From Schmidtea nova (Eukaryota), in the NCBI GenBank assembly GCA_044892505.1, contig CM097882.1:537478001-537542000 (forward strand): a DNA stretch of 64,000 nucleotides, given 5' to 3'. The notes under the pieces are model-generated. The model did not search any database, was not told the DNA's origin, and saw nothing but the letters and a program-made list of their open reading frames with translations. Positions 52,130 through 63,772 of the stretch are shown here, piece after piece. The translations under genes and the position numbers were made by a program. Numbering within the stretch: the stretch's first letter is position 1; every line of letters begins with the position of its first letter.

Positions 52130-53448
52130 TCTGAAGTGCTTCTTATACCAGATTTTATGTCATTTGCGTTCAGATGGATATGCAGCCAGCATCTGGTTTC
52201 CATCATCTACTGCTCCCATATTCTGATTATATAAAATCACATCTTCCGGTTTTGCTTTTTCTCCACGATGCACAGTCAAAGTTTGCATCTGAGCCCCATG
52301 AAATGTGGATAGCATGGTGACCTCCTTCTTGTCCATCCATTTTAGTGCCATCATATCGTTTGTGGAAGCAGCAGTTGTCTGTCCATGGGTTATTTTTGCC
52401 TTCAAGATGGGAGGCATATTCTTTCTGTTTAGCCTTACTGTCCCAACAGCATCTGTGTCATTGTTATACAACTCTCGAAACAAAGCCGGTGAACTATACC
52501 AGTTATCCATAAATATGCAATATTCCTGACCAAGTAGTTCCTGTACAAGAGTGAGTACAATTCGGGAAGACACTAGGCTATCAACAGATTGGACTAATTC
52601 CATTGCAGTTCCGATATGTATCATTGACTGCCAAATATATCCAGATCCGGATTCGCACAACTCATAGGACTTCAAGCCTCAACGGGCTCATTTGAGAGGG
52701 TTATACTGTTTCATGTATAAACGACCTTTCCACAATATTAGTGATTCATCAACAGCAATGTTTTCGGTCGGGATGTAAGTTGTAGAAAATTTTGCAACTA
52801 GAGCCTCGTGAAAGCATTTAATTTTCACAAATGAATTATCAGCTGGTGAATCAGATCTAACAATAGTATCATTGTCATAAAATGTAAACATTTGAGTATC
52901 AGGGTGAATCGCAACTCGGACATTATTTTCCGTATGTAATGTGTTTCCAGCAATGGCTTTGTAGTCCAGAACATATCATTTTCCAGTTTCTGCACTATTC
53001 CTTGGTATAACAGAATTGCTATAAAAACATGGATTTCAGCGTCATCGACTTCACTCCATTGACGCATCCTAGACCGGGCTTTAAGATTTGGTTGAGAGCT
53101 CAGTTGTAATCCTCGTCTGTTGGTTTCTGTGACAATGCTATCATTCATGTCTTGAGTAACTAAAAGTTCAAAATATTGTAATGGATCATCTTTATCAGTA
53201 ACGACTTTTTTTCAATCCAGGAGCTCCAGTGAAAGGCAGACGCGATGCTGTGTTGCTGTAGGAGACTACATCAAATCGTCGTCACTTACATAATAAAGCA
53301 TTTCATTACTTCCGCCACTGTTATCACTATCATCGACGTTACTACTATCACTACTGCCATCTTCATCACTGTCTATAAAACTACTGTCGCTCTCATCTAA
53401 CAAATCCTGTATTTGTTGTGCAGATAATCTGAGTTTTCTTGATGACAT
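52130..53448 (-). pseudogene. Decayed PGBD4-like piggyBac transposase, second family
   Basis: Acidic N-terminus; ETNR...WSEVDDAEIHVFI; AVDESLILWKG; CIFMDNWYSSP; YNQNMGAVD. Several frameshifts; ends not identified. Confidence 0.85.
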
Positions 53449-53990: not shown

Positions 53991-54917
53991 ACGGCAAAAT
54001 GGCGATCACAAAATGGCGAGCGTCAAAATAGCGACTGCATCAAAATGGCGATCATCAAAAAAGCGATTTGTATAAAAATTATAATTAATAAAATTAATNN
54101 NNNNNNNNNNNNNNNNNNNNNNNNNNNNNNNNNNNNNNNNNNNNNNNNNNNNNNNNNNNNNNNNNNNNNNNNNNNNNNNNNNNNNNNNNNNNNNNNNNNN
54201 NNNNNNNNNNNNNNNNNNNNNNNNNNNNNNNNNNNNNNNNNNNNNNNNNNNNNNNNNNNNNNNTGACTATAGATCAAAATTTTTTTTTATAAACAATAAC
54301 ACAATATTTCGGCACAGCCTTTATCAAGTGTGTATTTCTATCGTTATATTTACTTAATCCTTAAGTAAATATAACGATAGAAATACACACTTGATAAAGG
54401 CTGTGCCGAAATATTGTGTTATTGTTTATAAAAAAAAATTTTGATCTATAGTCATTATGAGAATTATTGATAATAATAATAAAAAAAGATCAAAGGTGAA
54501 AAAAGATAATTATGATATTAATATTATTATTANNNNNNNNNNNNNNNNNNNNNNNNNNNNNNNNNNNNNNNNNNNNNNNNNNNNNNNNNNNNNNNNNNNN
54601 NNNNNNNNNNNNNNNNNNNNNNNNNNNNNNNNNNNNNNNNNNNNNNNNNNNNNNNNNNNNNNNNNNNNNNNNNNNNNNNNNNNNNNNNNNNNNNNNNNNN
54701 NNNNNNNNNNNNNNNNNNNNNNNNNNNNNNNNNNNNNNNNNNNNNNNNNNNNNNNNNNNNNNNNNNNNNNNNNNNNNNNNNNNNNNNNNNNNNNNNNNNT
54801 AATAATTAATTTTATTAATTATAATTTTTATACAAATCGCTTTTTTGATGATCGCCATTTTGATGCAGTCGCTATTTTGACGCTCGCCATTTTGTGATCG
54901 CCATTTTGTGATCGCCA
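53991..54917. mobile_element. TIR element (TA-CGG...CCG-TA ends, AAAATGGCGA subrepeats) enclosing N blocks and a PLE hairpin
   Basis: 53991-54098 is the reverse complement of about 54806-54917. The inner 100 bp are identical; the right arm has one extra 15-bp unit. Confidence 0.7.
54264..54532. mobile_element. PLE 3'-end fold-back palindrome (94-bp visible left arm, loop TCC 54358-54360) with hammerheads at 54295-54336 (-) and 54382-54423 (+)
   Basis: 54264-54357 is the exact reverse complement of 54361-54454. The right arm continues into the AAAAAAAGATCAAAGGTG tail. Confidence 0.9.
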
Positions 54918-55840: not shown

Positions 55841-56250
55841 TTAATTATTTACAGATTGTAGGAATGCTAAAAGCAAATAAGATTTTATTAATAGAAATTG
55901 ATCTCCAATTGACAAGTTGGTCTTTGGCAACCGGAAATCCTGACCGATGATAACAAGAGTTGAAATGAGCAAGCTCCATGACAGTCCGTATTGATTGATT
56001 TCTGGTGCTGGCGAATAATCGTTTAATCGAGATTGATTGTGATCCAATGTATTGATTTGAATTTTTCGAGTTATACATTTCAGATTTGTCTGGATAGTAT
56101 ATTAATATTGATCCAGTTGTTGACAAGCATCTTCCAGTTTGTACGGCTTCTTTACGCATTCCAGCAGCGAAACATTTCTGCAATCTACGGAACTGGCAAT
56201 TGTTTCTTCTTTGAATATCGACTACACAATCTCCACTAGAGTAGAACTGA
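55841..56250 (-). pseudogene. Nuclear receptor (NR2/COUP-TF-like) fragment: second zinc finger, hinge, frameshifted start of LBD
   Basis: YQFYSSGDCVVDIQRRNNCQFRRLQKCFAAGMRKEAVQTGR (two Zn-ligand Cys appear as F and R). NLSIGDQFLLIKS LBD-signature-like motif in another frame. First finger absent. Confidence 0.7.
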
Positions 56251-57025
56251 TAATTGTTGTCATTTGATGAAAACGAGTCGCTGTGAATGTCTTGAGTGAA
56301 TGGGTATATCGAATCATTGTTAACAGCTTGCATTTTTTTTGATCAGCGTGAAAAAGTGAAAATATCTAAATATTAAAACAACATCTAATTTAATCCATTT
56401 AATAATTAATTAATTTATAAAATTGAAAATTTAATCTAAGGCACTACACAGATTATTATTGCTATGTAATATAAGTAAAAAAGTATTTAATTATATTACA
56501 TATTATTTTTAATAAAATACCTTTCTAAAGTAAAAATTTCACGAAAGCACAAGATCAGTTTAAACATTATCTCGTGTTAGAAATCATATAAGGAGCAGCA
56601 CTAAGCAAGACCAACGTAATGCCTTATCATTAATGGTTATAGAATCTGAACTTCTCCCCAAAATGGATTTTTATTCCATTGTTGAAGATTTTGCCTAGAA
56701 AGGTCTAGAAGAAAATCTTTCTACTTTTAAGTTTTTTTATTTGCTTCATGTTTATATCTTTTATATACGAATAAACGTAATATTATTTTCAAAATTAAAT
56801 TATTATTTTAACTATATAACAAGTGGAAACAAAATATATCAGGTTGAGTCATATATACACATACGGGTTAAGTAGGTGTTTGAGTACATATTTTCTATTT
56901 GTTATTGTTGCATTTTATTAAATTAATATATTTTTAGGAAGATACAATAATAATGACAGACACTCAGCTTACTCAAGAAATGAAAAATCATGCTAAAAGT
57001 GTAACTTTTAAGGCTGAGCACAAAA

Positions 57026-57255
57026 TATTAATATCAATAATTCCCATAATGGTAAGACTATAGATCAAACTTTCTTTAAATAAGTACACAATATTTCGAC
57101 AAAGCCTTTATCAAGTGCGTAATACACACTTGATTAAGGCTGGGCCGAAATATTCTGTACTTATTTAAAGAAAGTTTGATCTATAGTCTTACCATTATGG
57201 GAATTATTGATATCTTTTTGTTTCACCTTTGATCTTTTTTTTAATAATAATAATT
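57026..57255. mobile_element. 230-bp hairpin insertion of a related PLE subfamily with a 12-bp TSD
   Basis: TSD CTGAGCACAAAA at 57014-57025 and 57256-57267. Arms 57031-57121 / 57123-57213 with 6 mismatches. Inverted tail segment at about 57211-57255. Confidence 0.88.
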
Positions 57256-60200
57256 CTGAGCACAAAAGTTTAAATATATCTATTTTTAAAATTATTCAGA
57301 TCTTTTATTTACAAAGTTTGTAAGGAGTAAAAAATGTTGTCCAAGAAAGCTTCAACAAATATTGTAAAGAAAAATTCAACATGATCTGAAAATTTATTAT
57401 CTTTTAACCAAACCATGGAAAGAACAAACCGCATTTCTGAAAAATGAAATGAAATCTAGAGCCACCTGATGGAAACAAATTGCTAATGATCTGATAAAAC
57501 TGCGGGGAAGATTTGGCTTTCCAAAGCTGCTTAAACCCTCTGTTGGGGTTGCCTGAACAGGCATGAAATAAAAATAAAAAGCAAAAACTTATGTACAAAT
57601 CAATTTAAAAACACAAATTCTAAAAATGATAAAGTACAAAATATAATTAAAAATTTGGAAAAATTAAAAATAAAGATTTAACGGAAGAAACTAATATGGG
57701 AGATTGCCAAATGATGAGACGAATTAAAATATGGTTCAAAGGGGCCCCAAGAAAGAATATTATTAAGAAAATAAAAATTAATTAAAATAATCAATTACCT
57801 AATGGGAAACCCGAGCGATGTCAAAAATACCGAGTTTATCAACAAAATCATTTAATTATCCAAATAAATTGGATGAGGATGCCCCGGGGAAAAGGCCGCA
57901 ATGTCTTCAAATTATGAAGTGGCAAAAATAATTTAATTAATAAGGCGACAGGATGAAAGGAAAAAGGCACTATCTAAACTGAGAACAATTTGCCGATATT
58001 GCCAGTTTGGTCGAAGCAAAATTTATAATTTGAGGTGACAAGTAGAAACGACGAAAAATGAAGCTTAAACGAGAACTGAAGGTTAGAATGTCGATTTATC
58101 AATTTTTACTGCGTATCAGAAAAGGAGATTTTCCATTAGGTCACCTACCCTAACGCAAGGATACTGCAGAGAACATTTGTGTAACTTTGTCTAATCGAAA
58201 TAGCGTTTGAATTAATTTAAAATAAAGATTATTGTGTTGGTTTTAATTCATTATTGTCAAAGAAAGAACACAGGAGTCAGATACCAACTGACTATTCGCT
58301 GATAACCCAACAACTCTATTTTAATTAAGTGCAAAAACAATTATGTAAAAATTACTATTACTTAAAACGACCAGTCGGAAATGCAAATGAACGTTTTCGA
58401 ATTTTTTTGATATGACCTACATTAATGGAAATTGGCTGTGCAGTGAGGAAAAACCATTTATGAAAATCAAATAATTTCAAATGAAAAGATAAGTTATTCT
58501 GCTGGAAAGAAAAACGTGTCGTACTATGGAAAGAATTAAAATAATAATTCCTCATTTTCATCACACGGTAATAATAAGCTAGTAAATGACACTAGCTTCA
58601 CAGGGGTATCGAAACTGTATCTTAAGAGAATGGCTGACTAGTTCCAGATCAAAACGACAAAGATTTTATAAAATGAGAAGCAAGATTATCCACATAAAAC
58701 GCGTCCAATGTTTTAAAAATTGTTGATTAAGGAAATCAAGGCATATCTACCCTATCACAGTCTAAGGTTTAAAAAGCATTATATAAAGAAGCTCTAGTAT
58801 AAAAGGAACAACTGAAACAAAACCTGAAAAAAATCGTGACTGGTGTCTTAATTTTGATAGGCCAACAAGTAATTGTTCTGTAAAACTGTGAAAAATAAAA
58901 TTTCTCTACCTATTGGGAAGGCTGAAACGATCTTCGGTGTTATAAATTCAGTTTAATCCGAGTTTGAAATATGGTCTTCTTCAGAGTAATTGTTTGCAAT
59001 ACATATAATGCCAAAATCTCTGCCTTTTCGTTGCTTTATAAAATATTTTCTAAATCTACTACTACTACTTTTTTATTCTCATTTCAGTTTACTGGATAAT
59101 ATAAATATGCATTTTATATTTTAAAAACTTAAATAAACCGACGTAATAAACCATGTAATAAATTCCAAAAAAACTCAACCGTCATTTGAAGGGACTTATA
59201 ACTAATTGATAATAAAGTTTCAATATTGTGTGATGTTTGTTTTGTTTTTTGAGAACACGAAGAGTCAGATTTAGTAATAATAATCCTGCAGAAAGCGATT
59301 ACGAACATAACATAGTGTGTAATCTACATACCCGCATGATATTTTACTAGAATTATTGTGTGTATTTTTGAAATAAAAATTAAATTAAATTGGAAAAATC
59401 CATAATGGTAAAGCACAAACTATGTATTATTATATCCAGAAATTATGTAAGTAGTTGGAATACATGCTATAATGAAGAATTGATTGGTAGAGCACACGTT
59501 TTCGTAATATCAAAATATTTTAAACGAATTTATACTCAACACTTTCCAATAATGAGAATAAATGTAAACATTATTATTATTATTTAATAATTTATGGACC
59601 CCTTTTTTGAATTCAAACTTTTCTTGTGCACATAATGAAAAATGCGTGTTAAGGGACACAATTGTCGTTTTCACCAAATTAAATGAAATTTATTGAATTT
59701 TTACGTAACATGAACGGTTACAAGGAATAATATCTCGAAACACGCAACTAAGTTGATCTGTTGGTCAGATCAGATATCAGTAAATTACGTAATTATGGTA
59801 TTGAATATTCACTTAGATTTACTTTTTACAAGACTTCCGATCACAGATAGAATTGATAAATTGCGAAAGTTTTTTAAAATTAAAATTTGTTACGTAACAG
59901 ACTTTTCGGTTTGTAAATATTAATTTATTTTGATTACAAAACTCGTTAATTATATCAGAATTTGTTTACTTAAAACATTTACATAATAATGTGAGATAAA
60001 ATAATTTTTTTCCTTGATCAATACATGTTAAGCCATTTTGTAAAAAATTGACTTTCATTGTAAAAACAAAATAAAATCTAAATTGCATCCTCCCATTTTC
60101 GGCAACTAAAACATCCTGATGCATTATCAATGATGTAATCAGTTTAGGACAAGCTTGAATGATAATCTAAATGTTGTCATCAACACACTTTTTGTGCATA

Positions 60201-61507: not shown

Positions 61508-63253
61508 TTATTTATTTAAAATAAACATGTATTTGTCGTTTATCTTGTGGAAATTTCTGAACTGCCATGTGATATTGTTTTGTATTCGGTGCTTAGATTC
61601 TTGTCTTTGGTTTTCTTCGATTTTATGCTTGGCCTCTGTTGCTGCAGCAACGTTATTGTCTTTCAAGTGCTTCGTAACTGTTTCCCATAATTTCCTCGAC
61701 TCAAAATCTTGTTGATGCAGCCTTTTTGTGACTCGCTTTTTCATCTTCGGCAACTGACTAATTTCGAGAAACTTGTGATAATCTTTGTCCTGAGAAAATT
61801 TCCCCATCATCAGGCCATTCCATTCTCCTTCAACGAAATAAAATGCTTTGCTTTCTTTCGGTCGAAAGATTTGAGCTTCTATTTTGTCTTTTTTTCCAAA
61901 AATAGTTTTCGTTTTGAAATTAATTGTCGACCTGTAATTGGTTTCTGCACAACTGATATGGCAATGGCCACCGAATTCTACCCATGGTGTACCGAAAATA
62001 TTGTTACAATAAGCTGTCGGAAAAGTGACAACGTATTCTTCATTTTTGTCAACAATTTTCAAAACAGCTTCACCGATCATTTCAACAGTGACGTAAAATC
62101 CCATGAACTTTGATTTCGGATAAATGTTGCCAGTGATTTGCATATTTTTGTCCGAAGTCTCCGCGTAAAATGCCGAAATCGGAGGATGATGGGATACTTG
62201 TTCACTAATAAATGAAACTCTGTCGACTGTGTTTTCATTATAAGGATTTGAAACTTCAAATTGACAGCTGAAAACCTCACCTAATATGGGGTTATAAGAC
62301 TTTTTAGCGACTTCTGATTTCTGACTTGTATGAAACGCTGACAAATACCATTTTAAGCAAGCCATCATTCGTAATTCTGCCGAATGCATTCTACCTATTT
62401 CCATCCATAAATCTGTGTGCGCTAAGAAATCTCCGTACATTTCTAACATGGACCGTCTTTCTAAAATATGAACTGGTAAAGTTATTTTTGTTAAATCCAT
62501 GCCGATTTTAATTTGTCTCAATAAATGGGAAATAATAGAGACATCTGTCGACATAGATGGTTTTTCGTCGTCATCATACAATTCATCAAAATATTCTCCA
62601 TTATCATTGCCCATTTGGGGCTCATTGTCAATTGTGTCATATAAATTTGATTCACTACAAAATATGTAGGAATCAAGCGAATAATAATCGCCAGAACTGT
62701 TATTTATCGAGAAATAATCGCCAGAGTCACTAATTTTTGATAAATGATTTTGGCTTATTTTACAATTCCGTAGATTTTCACTGAAATTCTCGTCACTTGG
62801 TGACAGTTCAATGATAATTTTATTGCATCCTGAATTCCCGTTACCTTGACAATCTTCAAATTCATAGTGCAAATTATTGGAGTGATTGCACTTGTCAAGG
62901 ATAAATGGATCCATAGACATCGATGTTGCACCGTAAGAGTTCGACCGCTTCAAATTGAGGTTGACATTTTTTTCGTCAATAATTTTATTCAGGGCCTCGA
63001 TCCAAGCGGCCAAATCGATTTTGCACTTTGACTTCAAACGAATTTTTCGAGTTTTGTTTTGAATGGAAAACTGTAAAGAGTCGATAATGTTAATTTTTAC
63101 GTTTTTCAAATCCATATAATCTTTAAATCTACCGATTTCTCGATCTTTTTTCGACGAGAAATAAATCAAATGTTTCTTTTCTTCATCTATTATGAAATAT
63201 CTATATTGCCACCTGAAAATATTATTTGTCCATTTTAACAAAATTCCATTCAT
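61508..63253 (-). CDS. OSBPL9: Oxysterol-binding protein-related protein, ORP9-like (PH domain plus ORD), single exon, 581 aa
   Basis: N-terminal GILLKWTNNIFRWQYRYF PH motif; IGMDLTKITLPVHILERRSMLEMY, YNPILGE, EQVSHHPP signature, KHKIEENQR; FFAT-like EYFDELY. Uninterrupted ORF. Confidence 0.93.
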   Translation of the reverse strand: MNGILLKWTNNIFRWQYRYFIIDEEKKHLIYFSSKKDREIGRFKDYMDLKNVKINIIDSLQFSIQNKTRKIRLKSKCKIDLAAWIEALNKIIDEKNVNLNLKRSNSYGATSMSMDPFILDKCNHSNNLHYEFEDCQGNGNSGCNKIIIELSPSDENFSENLRNCKISQNHLSKISDSGDYFSINNSSGDYYSLDSYIFCSESNLYDTIDNEPQMGNDNGEYFDELYDDDEKPSMSTDVSIISHLLRQIKIGMDLTKITLPVHILERRSMLEMYGDFLAHTDLWMEIGRMHSAELRMMACLKWYLSAFHTSQKSEVAKKSYNPILGEVFSCQFEVSNPYNENTVDRVSFISEQVSHHPPISAFYAETSDKNMQITGNIYPKSKFMGFYVTVEMIGEAVLKIVDKNEEYVVTFPTAYCNNIFGTPWVEFGGHCHISCAETNYRSTINFKTKTIFGKKDKIEAQIFRPKESKAFYFVEGEWNGLMMGKFSQDKDYHKFLEISQLPKMKKRVTKRLHQQDFESRKLWETVTKHLKDNNVAAATEAKHKIEENQRQESKHRIQNNITWQFRNFHKINDKYMFILNK

Positions 63254-63772
63254 GATATATTAGAAATTATTACTTTCCAAATCGGTTAAATAAATTTTTA
63301 TGATGTAATTTATAATTAATTAGGAGAATTTAATTAAATGAGGAATTTATATACAATTTTTCAAACAATTTTATTACATTGATATGTATAAAATTATTGA
63401 TTATTTTTCATAAAAACAAAAATAAAATTTTTAATTTAAAAATAATTTAATGTTTAATTTGCAAATTAAATTAAAAAAAAAATGTTTGAAAAAAATGTCA
63501 TTAAATAATTTTAAAATGAGATATGGTCGGATTCTTTTAAACCTATGATGAATTATAATTATAATAATATATTATTAGTGCAAATGCGATATTAATAATT
63601 CATTTTCTTGTGACGTTGCAATTGCAAATAATAAAAATTAGTTTATTTATTATTTATTATACCGATTTTTTACGTCTTTATAACGAAGCAAATATAACAG
63701 TAGATGGTCTTTTGTTTATCAATATAAATTAAATATCAATTCATTTGTAATTAAATTATGAAAAAGAATATA

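Follow-up and report, generated by a model that had tools for sequence, protein, structure and literature searches.

The window analysed here is a stretch of 64,000 nucleotides from Schmidtea nova (contig CM097882.1), with positions counted from its first letter. At 57026–57255 it contains a 230-bp insert, placed between two identical 12-mers on the plus strand (57014–57025 and 57256–57267). Two arms of 91 nt each (57031–57121 and 57123–57213), separated by a single base, make up a hairpin in which the outer 58 bp pair perfectly and six mismatches lie at 4, 13, 20, 21, 23 and 33 nt from the tip. On the left, a tail-less pLTR arm with its sense on the minus strand spans 57026–57121 and terminates at the tail-less start site of the family; on the right, the tail-bearing pLTR arm (57123–57213, sense on the plus strand) contains the ORF start codon at 57197–57199. 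Each arm carries a hammerhead motif (57086–57118, minus strand, and 57126–57158, plus strand), and the arms join on a 9-nt quasi-palindrome (57118–57126), which the parent already carries immediately before the hammerhead, as seen in the upstream context of long arms. The tail comes in two pieces, namely a 36-bp segment inverted in place (57214–57249, minus strand) and the final six bases in the original orientation (57250–57255, plus strand), which 41 of 61 ordinary tails also have here. A previous reading of the sequence only had described a 230-bp insert whose 91-bp arms differ at six positions, all in the 33 nt nearest the tip, together with a 12-bp TSD and a tail reversed relative to the right arm, and this architecture was borne out.

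Close to the locus, further dispersed repeats lie at 56606–56836 and 57541–57620. About 670 bp from the hairpin, a frame on the minus strand (55848–56342) matches zf-C4 (E=5.6e-8) over only the second half of the nuclear-receptor zinc finger, and a first zinc finger for this frame was not found. Elsewhere in the window, PH and oxysterol-binding domains share a single frame of 583 aa (61511–63259, minus strand), and 318–6703 is an LTR retrotransposon whose 952-bp repeats are identical and whose gag-like and pol-like frames are open; a decayed relative occurs at 14780–16355. Three broken frames, at 22186–23771, 38448–39862 and 52160–53211, are presumably Mutator-like and piggyBac-like transposases.

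The family to which the hairpin belongs has thousands of copies in this 1.25-Gb genome. A 28-mer of the hairpin's pLTR variant retrieved 1663 exact matches genome-wide and the sister pLTR variant 2326. The sequence-only reading had set this variant apart from the main family; it does differ from the young family of the window (≈81% identity), but it is itself abundant. Young full copies carry an 867-aa ORF within a 2766-bp monomer and are arranged as partial tandems. The ORF begins inside the pLTR arm and the tail encodes its next residues. An RT domain was detected in the ORF of the young sister copies (RVT_1, E=1.3e-7), and no Pfam match to a GIY-YIG endonuclease was found in it; its C-terminus, with a VY..YIGET motif and a cysteine/histidine spacing, may be GIY-YIG-endonuclease-like. 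Arms of the hairpin's own variant extend into ORF-like sequence with up to 92% identity to the window element. The subfamily with the 867-aa ORF is probably active or very recent. Full-length ORFs lie at loci L187, L183, L189, L192, L196, L201 and L203, in near-identical partial tandems, and at L200:2820-6443 an internal duplication leaves the frame open for 1207 aa.

The sequence-only reading had placed the insert in unique flanks. Instead, 56873–57334 belongs to a decayed repeat, for which at least 40 more matches were found, 74–89% identical. Its left part (56873–57013, plus strand), old and dispersed, continues across the insertion in the right part (57268–57334, plus strand). No Pfam family was found in three paralogue frames; by resemblance, the repeat may have a Tc1/mariner origin. 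We examined 24 of the 40 further matches listed. Ten of them show an empty site, in which one homologue of the 12-mer runs straight into the right flank (at least 39 of 60 bases identical, ungapped, where a shifted control reached at most 27); in the remaining 14 the sequence is deleted or stops close to the site, and the hairpin occurs there in none of the 24. The paralogues differ from the 12-mer of the window at two or more positions whereas its two copies are identical, and the duplication would thus be younger than the decay of the host copy. Exact flanking repeats of at least 10 bp accompany 29 of 47 tailed hairpins with non-simple flanks versus 17 of 279 mismatched control pairs, and the length of the flanking duplication in the family is variable, mostly 10–15 bp with a mode of 12 bp. 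The paralogous empty sites and the family-wide duplications peaking at 12 bp support the earlier proposal that the hairpin is a real retrotransposition product.

MITE and fold-back DNA transposons have inverted repeats at both termini and a TSD of fixed length. Such an origin does not fit the one-sided tail and the variable duplication lengths. No empty allele of the hairpin locus itself was found in the contigs of four public runs, which come from one study and possibly from the assembled sample; a joint of 56971 with 57314 occurs in three runs, with no more than 21 letters on one of its sides, and was not counted as an empty allele. The filled left junction occurs without differences in short-read contigs of runs X1 and X2, and the right junction in X1, where a contig bridges the right 12-mer; since these contigs may be of the assembled sample, they give no independent support for the filled site.

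Endonuclease-positive PLEs have been described as composed of an inverted 5′-truncated pLTR, a tail at one end and a TSD (in the relevant passages of PMC3846280, PMC8557442 and PMC2377424). The same elements are found here: a pLTR from partial tandems including the ORF start (2766-bp monomer, start codon in the arm), and an inverted 5′-truncated copy with a one-sided tail of 30–40 bp, which in this hairpin is partly inverted. The hairpin, made of a tail-less inverted pLTR, a tailed pLTR and a TSD, is indeed the shortest form of this published head-to-head layout. According to the same passages, the inverted 5′-truncated copy, the one-ended tail and the short TSD are shared with Pen2a_Av (PMC3846280), with the general layout (PMC8557442) and with Penelope of D. 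virilis (PMC2377424), as are, for the endonuclease-positive PLEs of these three sources, the coding of the first ORF residues by pLTR and tail and the AT-rich or microsatellite targets. Unlike what is described there, the hairpin arms are only ≈95 nt, the TSD is 12 instead of 8–10 bp and 36 bp of the tail are inverted.

The Rfam scan of the window gave no match, the hammerhead falling below the Rfam thresholds, and both motifs were assigned by a position-wise check, by which the hairpin hammerhead fits the minimal PLE type. The left-arm motif is a minimal type I hammerhead with a U3-A8 core, an extra A before stem II and no real stem III; its three changes (two wobbles and one in a loop) keep all pairs. 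The right-arm motif is broken, with loss of the 3-8 pair and of the first pair of stem I. Core and stems are intact in 11 of 12 young arms and in 56 of 134 old arms, and stems I and II are predicted to form in the hammerhead of one young copy. RNA read through the insert is predicted to fold as a single long hairpin in which both hammerheads are paired off. Judged from its sequence, this copy is dead, having no ORF and two paired-off ribozymes, one of them broken. Passages of PMC4209133 describe, in Schistosoma, minimal type I PLE hammerheads with U3-A8 and an extra base before stem II and, in Schistosoma mansoni, opposite-strand pairs 100–700 bp apart. As in the metazoan PLE hammerheads treated there, the motifs of the hairpin are of type I, have a short stem I and no stem III, form an opposite-strand pair, carry the extra base between positions 9 and 10.1 and show the U3-A8 covariation; unlike them, stem II is of 3 bp, versus the 7–8 bp given in those passages, and self-cleavage in this family is a prediction from sequence.

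The reverse complement of 57214–57249 is the ordinary tail except for one substitution and one extra A. Because 57250–57255 keep the original orientation after this reversed segment, the 36 bp have been inverted in place. The inversion lies inside a 7-bp stem (57201–57207 with 57250–57256), the last base of which derives from the target, and was likely caused by a template switch during or after integration. Among 257 tail matches of other loci, 237 were ordinary, 20 had no adjoining arm and none was flipped; no second copy of the flipped junction was present in the best 40 of 66 candidates, and the best 20 partial matches to it were all ordinary tails. The flipped tail is a private in-place inversion of this copy. 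The hairpin is, apart from this micro-inversion, which is its sole private feature, an ordinary, heavily shortened PLE insertion.

The position of all six mismatches in the inner 33 of 91 nt has a probability of P=0.0017 under uniform rates and of P=0.009 under the family's own per-site rates, for a boundary chosen after seeing the data. From the clustering, the sequence-only reading had suggested either that processing of a cruciform or hairpin mutates the tip or that selection retains variants weakening the hairpin. In all, 117 short hairpins were collected, from 38 places most like the insert (sample A), 60 found by the 28-mer (B) and 26 found with the sister motif (C). Removal of eight that were tandem duplicates or excessively degenerate gave a set of 99 old hairpins, the studied one included, and 10 young ones. 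Raw mismatch is higher in the inner 33 nt than outside by 1.4–1.8 times in all three old samples (A 9.1 vs 5.8%, B 10.4 vs 7.7%, C 7.9 vs 4.3%), and the young sample gave 5/258 vs 3/500, in line with a tip effect. Yet mismatch at G/C sites is about three times that at A/T sites, and G/C content is 13/33 in the inner and 13/58 in the outer part. When each base class is compared by itself and the ascertained motif region is excluded, the 98 other old hairpins show no significant excess, either at G/C sites (16.3% in the inner 33 nt vs 12.6% outside, P=0.12) or at A/T sites (4.9 vs 5.3%, P=0.54), and in the unbiased sets the A/T sites have the opposite trend (3.1% inner vs 5.7% outside, P=0.01). 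The inner excess across these relatives thus arises because the inner part is richer in G/C. No gradient was seen over 10-nt bins from the tip, and five inner with no outer mismatches were found in 2 of 57 other full-length hairpins. The comparison of mismatch with distance from the tip, proposed by the sequence-only reading and here run on many copies, gave, with base class allowed for, largely the uniform distribution which that reading had named as refuting it. Clustering at the tip as a family trait is not supported; a small residual tip effect is possible and a tip-directed mechanism is not needed, so that we regard tip-directed mutagenesis or selection as very improbable.

As a separate origin of the six mismatches, inheritance from two source elements was rejected, four of the alleles being absent or single in samples B and C. 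In the arms of these samples, the six alleles have counts of 0/66, 0/84, 4/87, 1/87, 12/88 and 1/99, and no linkage; their abundance in the best-match sample A results from ascertainment.

The sequence-only reading had also considered the hairpin as a non-autonomous retrozyme-like unit, which would be transcribed and reinserted whole, and had asked whether short hairpins share one fold point or many. There are thousands of short copies, many with nearly one fold point, and the best 40 matches to the whole insert (though selected for likeness) were all short hairpins, as a propagating unit would predict. The junctions, however, are many, with 51 distinct ones among the 61 hairpins of samples B and C, and the fold points form a continuum that reaches arms of kilobase length containing ORF sequence. 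Hairpins with arms of different subfamilies, described below, occur in both directions (7 and 7), and the private flipped tail left no second copy in the searches given above. Retrozymes are direct tandem repeats (passages of PMC7229834 and bioRxiv 10.64898/2026.07.22.740005), whereas direct tandem ribozymes are absent here, where only two motifs occur, opposed and paired off. Animal non-LTR retrozymes, as those passages present them, resemble the hairpin in being short, non-coding, PLE-derived and hammerhead-bearing, with one ribozyme in each direct repeat unit; the hairpin, unlike them, has an inverted pair, a tail and a family with many fold points. A retrozyme-like unit is already largely refuted, and we give it hardly any credence.

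The ends of the arms are not uniformly distributed. Among 93 arms picked by the motif alone, with the fold disregarded, 41 stop in a 10-nt window around the base immediately before stem I, 11 extend upstream beyond it and the other 41 stop short of it; the predicted cleavage site shows no peak, with 2 of the 93 arms ending at that base. The parent carries the 9-nt quasi-palindrome at this pile-up, which accounts for the exact join of the studied hairpin. Arms stop at the pile-up even with a much shorter partner, and also in the young subfamily without the palindrome. The pile-up most likely marks the 5′ end of the RNA, and an RT block or the quasi-palindrome could contribute to it. A promoter within the pLTR has been described for Penelope of D. 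virilis (passages of PMC2377424).

How PLEs build their inverted ends is called undefined in passages of PMC8557442 and attributed to self-priming in those of PMC3846280. In the latter, printed model, one cDNA (or an antisense RNA) would fold back and prime itself, asymmetries between arms being given by later deletions or short gene conversions. The young long loci (30, that is 29 and that of the window), selected for one arm of more than 1.2 kb, include 20 simple head-to-head insertions, the other 10 being left out for lack of a partner in the stretch or for complexity. Exactly one arm is tailed in 18 of the 20, and both are in two (L178 and L200). In 8 of these 18 the tail-less arm reaches further 5′, by 20, 52, 96, 854, 1116, 1243, 2851 and 3181 nt, that is by more than 800 nt in five; the 61 short hairpins have the tail-less arm longer in 21, the tailed arm longer in 20 and equal arms in 20. 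A copy made back from the tailed cDNA cannot exceed its length, and with the tail-less cDNA as template no tail could arise, so that separate priming of each arm is likely. The arm lengths thus argue against fold-back, and both target ends are likely to prime, each arm with its own priming. Central deletions could later alter arm lengths. Moreover, partial tandems are present in four of the five insertions with large asymmetries; there a nested second insertion is possible and the duplications, within microsatellite, are unreadable. The studied junction sits on a quasi-palindrome, as fold-back would have it; however, most young junctions are microhomologies of 1–6 nt between unequal arms and not palindromes. 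Arms of the young long insertions are 99.7–100% identical, and junction overlaps of 0–6 nt are found in 15 of 20.

The subfamily composition of the arms bears on the number of templates. By a marker formed of a linked substitution and deletion, 14 of 87 classifiable old hairpins have arms of mixed subfamily, seven each way. With arms paired at random, about 2.5 times more would be mixed; counts of 7 mixed of 34 and 3 of 17 compare with 19.8 and 7.1 expected. Such matching of arms in subfamily type is as a fold-back would produce. At a second diagnostic site, 26 nt away, the arms of the mixed hairpins agree in 11 of 12, which favours short tracts, as of gene conversion in the fold-back model, or related sources. 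The mixed hairpins are not older (background difference 6.1 vs 7.1%, P=0.30), contrary to what conversion over time predicts. Within one young insertion the arms share private variants, as fits a single template as well as a single source locus, and the youngest subfamily is too uniform (≈99.8%) to separate one template from two. Taking these points together, we consider self-priming of a folded-back cDNA unlikely.

Separately from these comparisons, both arms end within ≈110 nt of each other in about eight young long insertions (L177-L205), perhaps through coupled termination or one RNA end, and the selection for a long arm may contribute.

Passages of PMC11167929 report that the PLE protein in vitro nicks and extends both strands, starts RT at two sites that enclose the tail and, by prediction, forms a dimer. 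The likeness to that system, Poseidon of Anolis carolinensis, extends to an AT-rich target and to a hammerhead beside the ORF start, although the start codon lies here ≈40 nt downstream of the ribozyme. The same passages do not tie the extension of both strands to inverted insertions. Our literature search, with older subscription papers beyond its reach, found no printed model of two-end priming for PLEs.

In our preferred reading, the hairpin is quite probably a single, extremely 5′-truncated insertion of a putatively endonuclease-bearing PLE into an old repeat, made by two RT events, each primed at one of the nicks of a single 12-nt staggered cut. The target is duplicated over 12 bp. Each nick would have primed its own cDNA, one at the tail-less start site and the other ≈40 nt further 3′, and this distance between the two start sites would leave the tail on one side only. 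Both cDNAs would have stopped after ≈95–140 nt at one shared boundary immediately before the hammerhead, in all likelihood where the RNA has its 5′ end, and there their 3′ ends may have annealed over the 9-nt quasi-palindrome. The 36 bp of the tail, lying between short inverted repeats, were inverted in place, presumably at a later time, and the six mismatches would be ordinary decay biased to G/C sites.

More tentatively, and with somewhat less than even confidence, each PLE integration may use two RNAs: a dimer would prime at both nicks, one of its subunits using the tail-less start and the other the tailed one, and the cDNAs would be joined head to head. The 95-nt hairpins would then be strong-stop-like run-off products at a capped 5′ end before the hammerhead, and the mixed-arm hairpins would record two source RNAs.

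A single hairpin copy is of little weight, and it is as a test bed for PLE integration that the family matters. Its thousands of dated head-to-head insertions, with an intact young parent and variants diagnostic of the arms, make two-end priming, and likewise the use of one RNA versus two, testable by counting and then in vitro.

Other copies of the family accompany the hairpin in the window. A related young insertion of the sister subfamily (34137–36885) has the same layout over 2.7 kb; its head-to-head arms of 1429 and 1323 bp contain the 3′ part of the ORF for RT and putative endonuclease, differ by three mismatches and overlap by 3 nt at the junction. Beside it, at 33868–34064, lies a short hairpin of this family. 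The young subfamily has two more short hairpins, folded at different points, at 1–116 and at 54264–54532, the latter within a small inverted-repeat element (53995–54098 / 54805–54908). Elsewhere in the genome, hairpins or arms are tandemly duplicated together with their flanks at L053, L065, L079, L085 and L122, and some are nested in earlier copies of the family.
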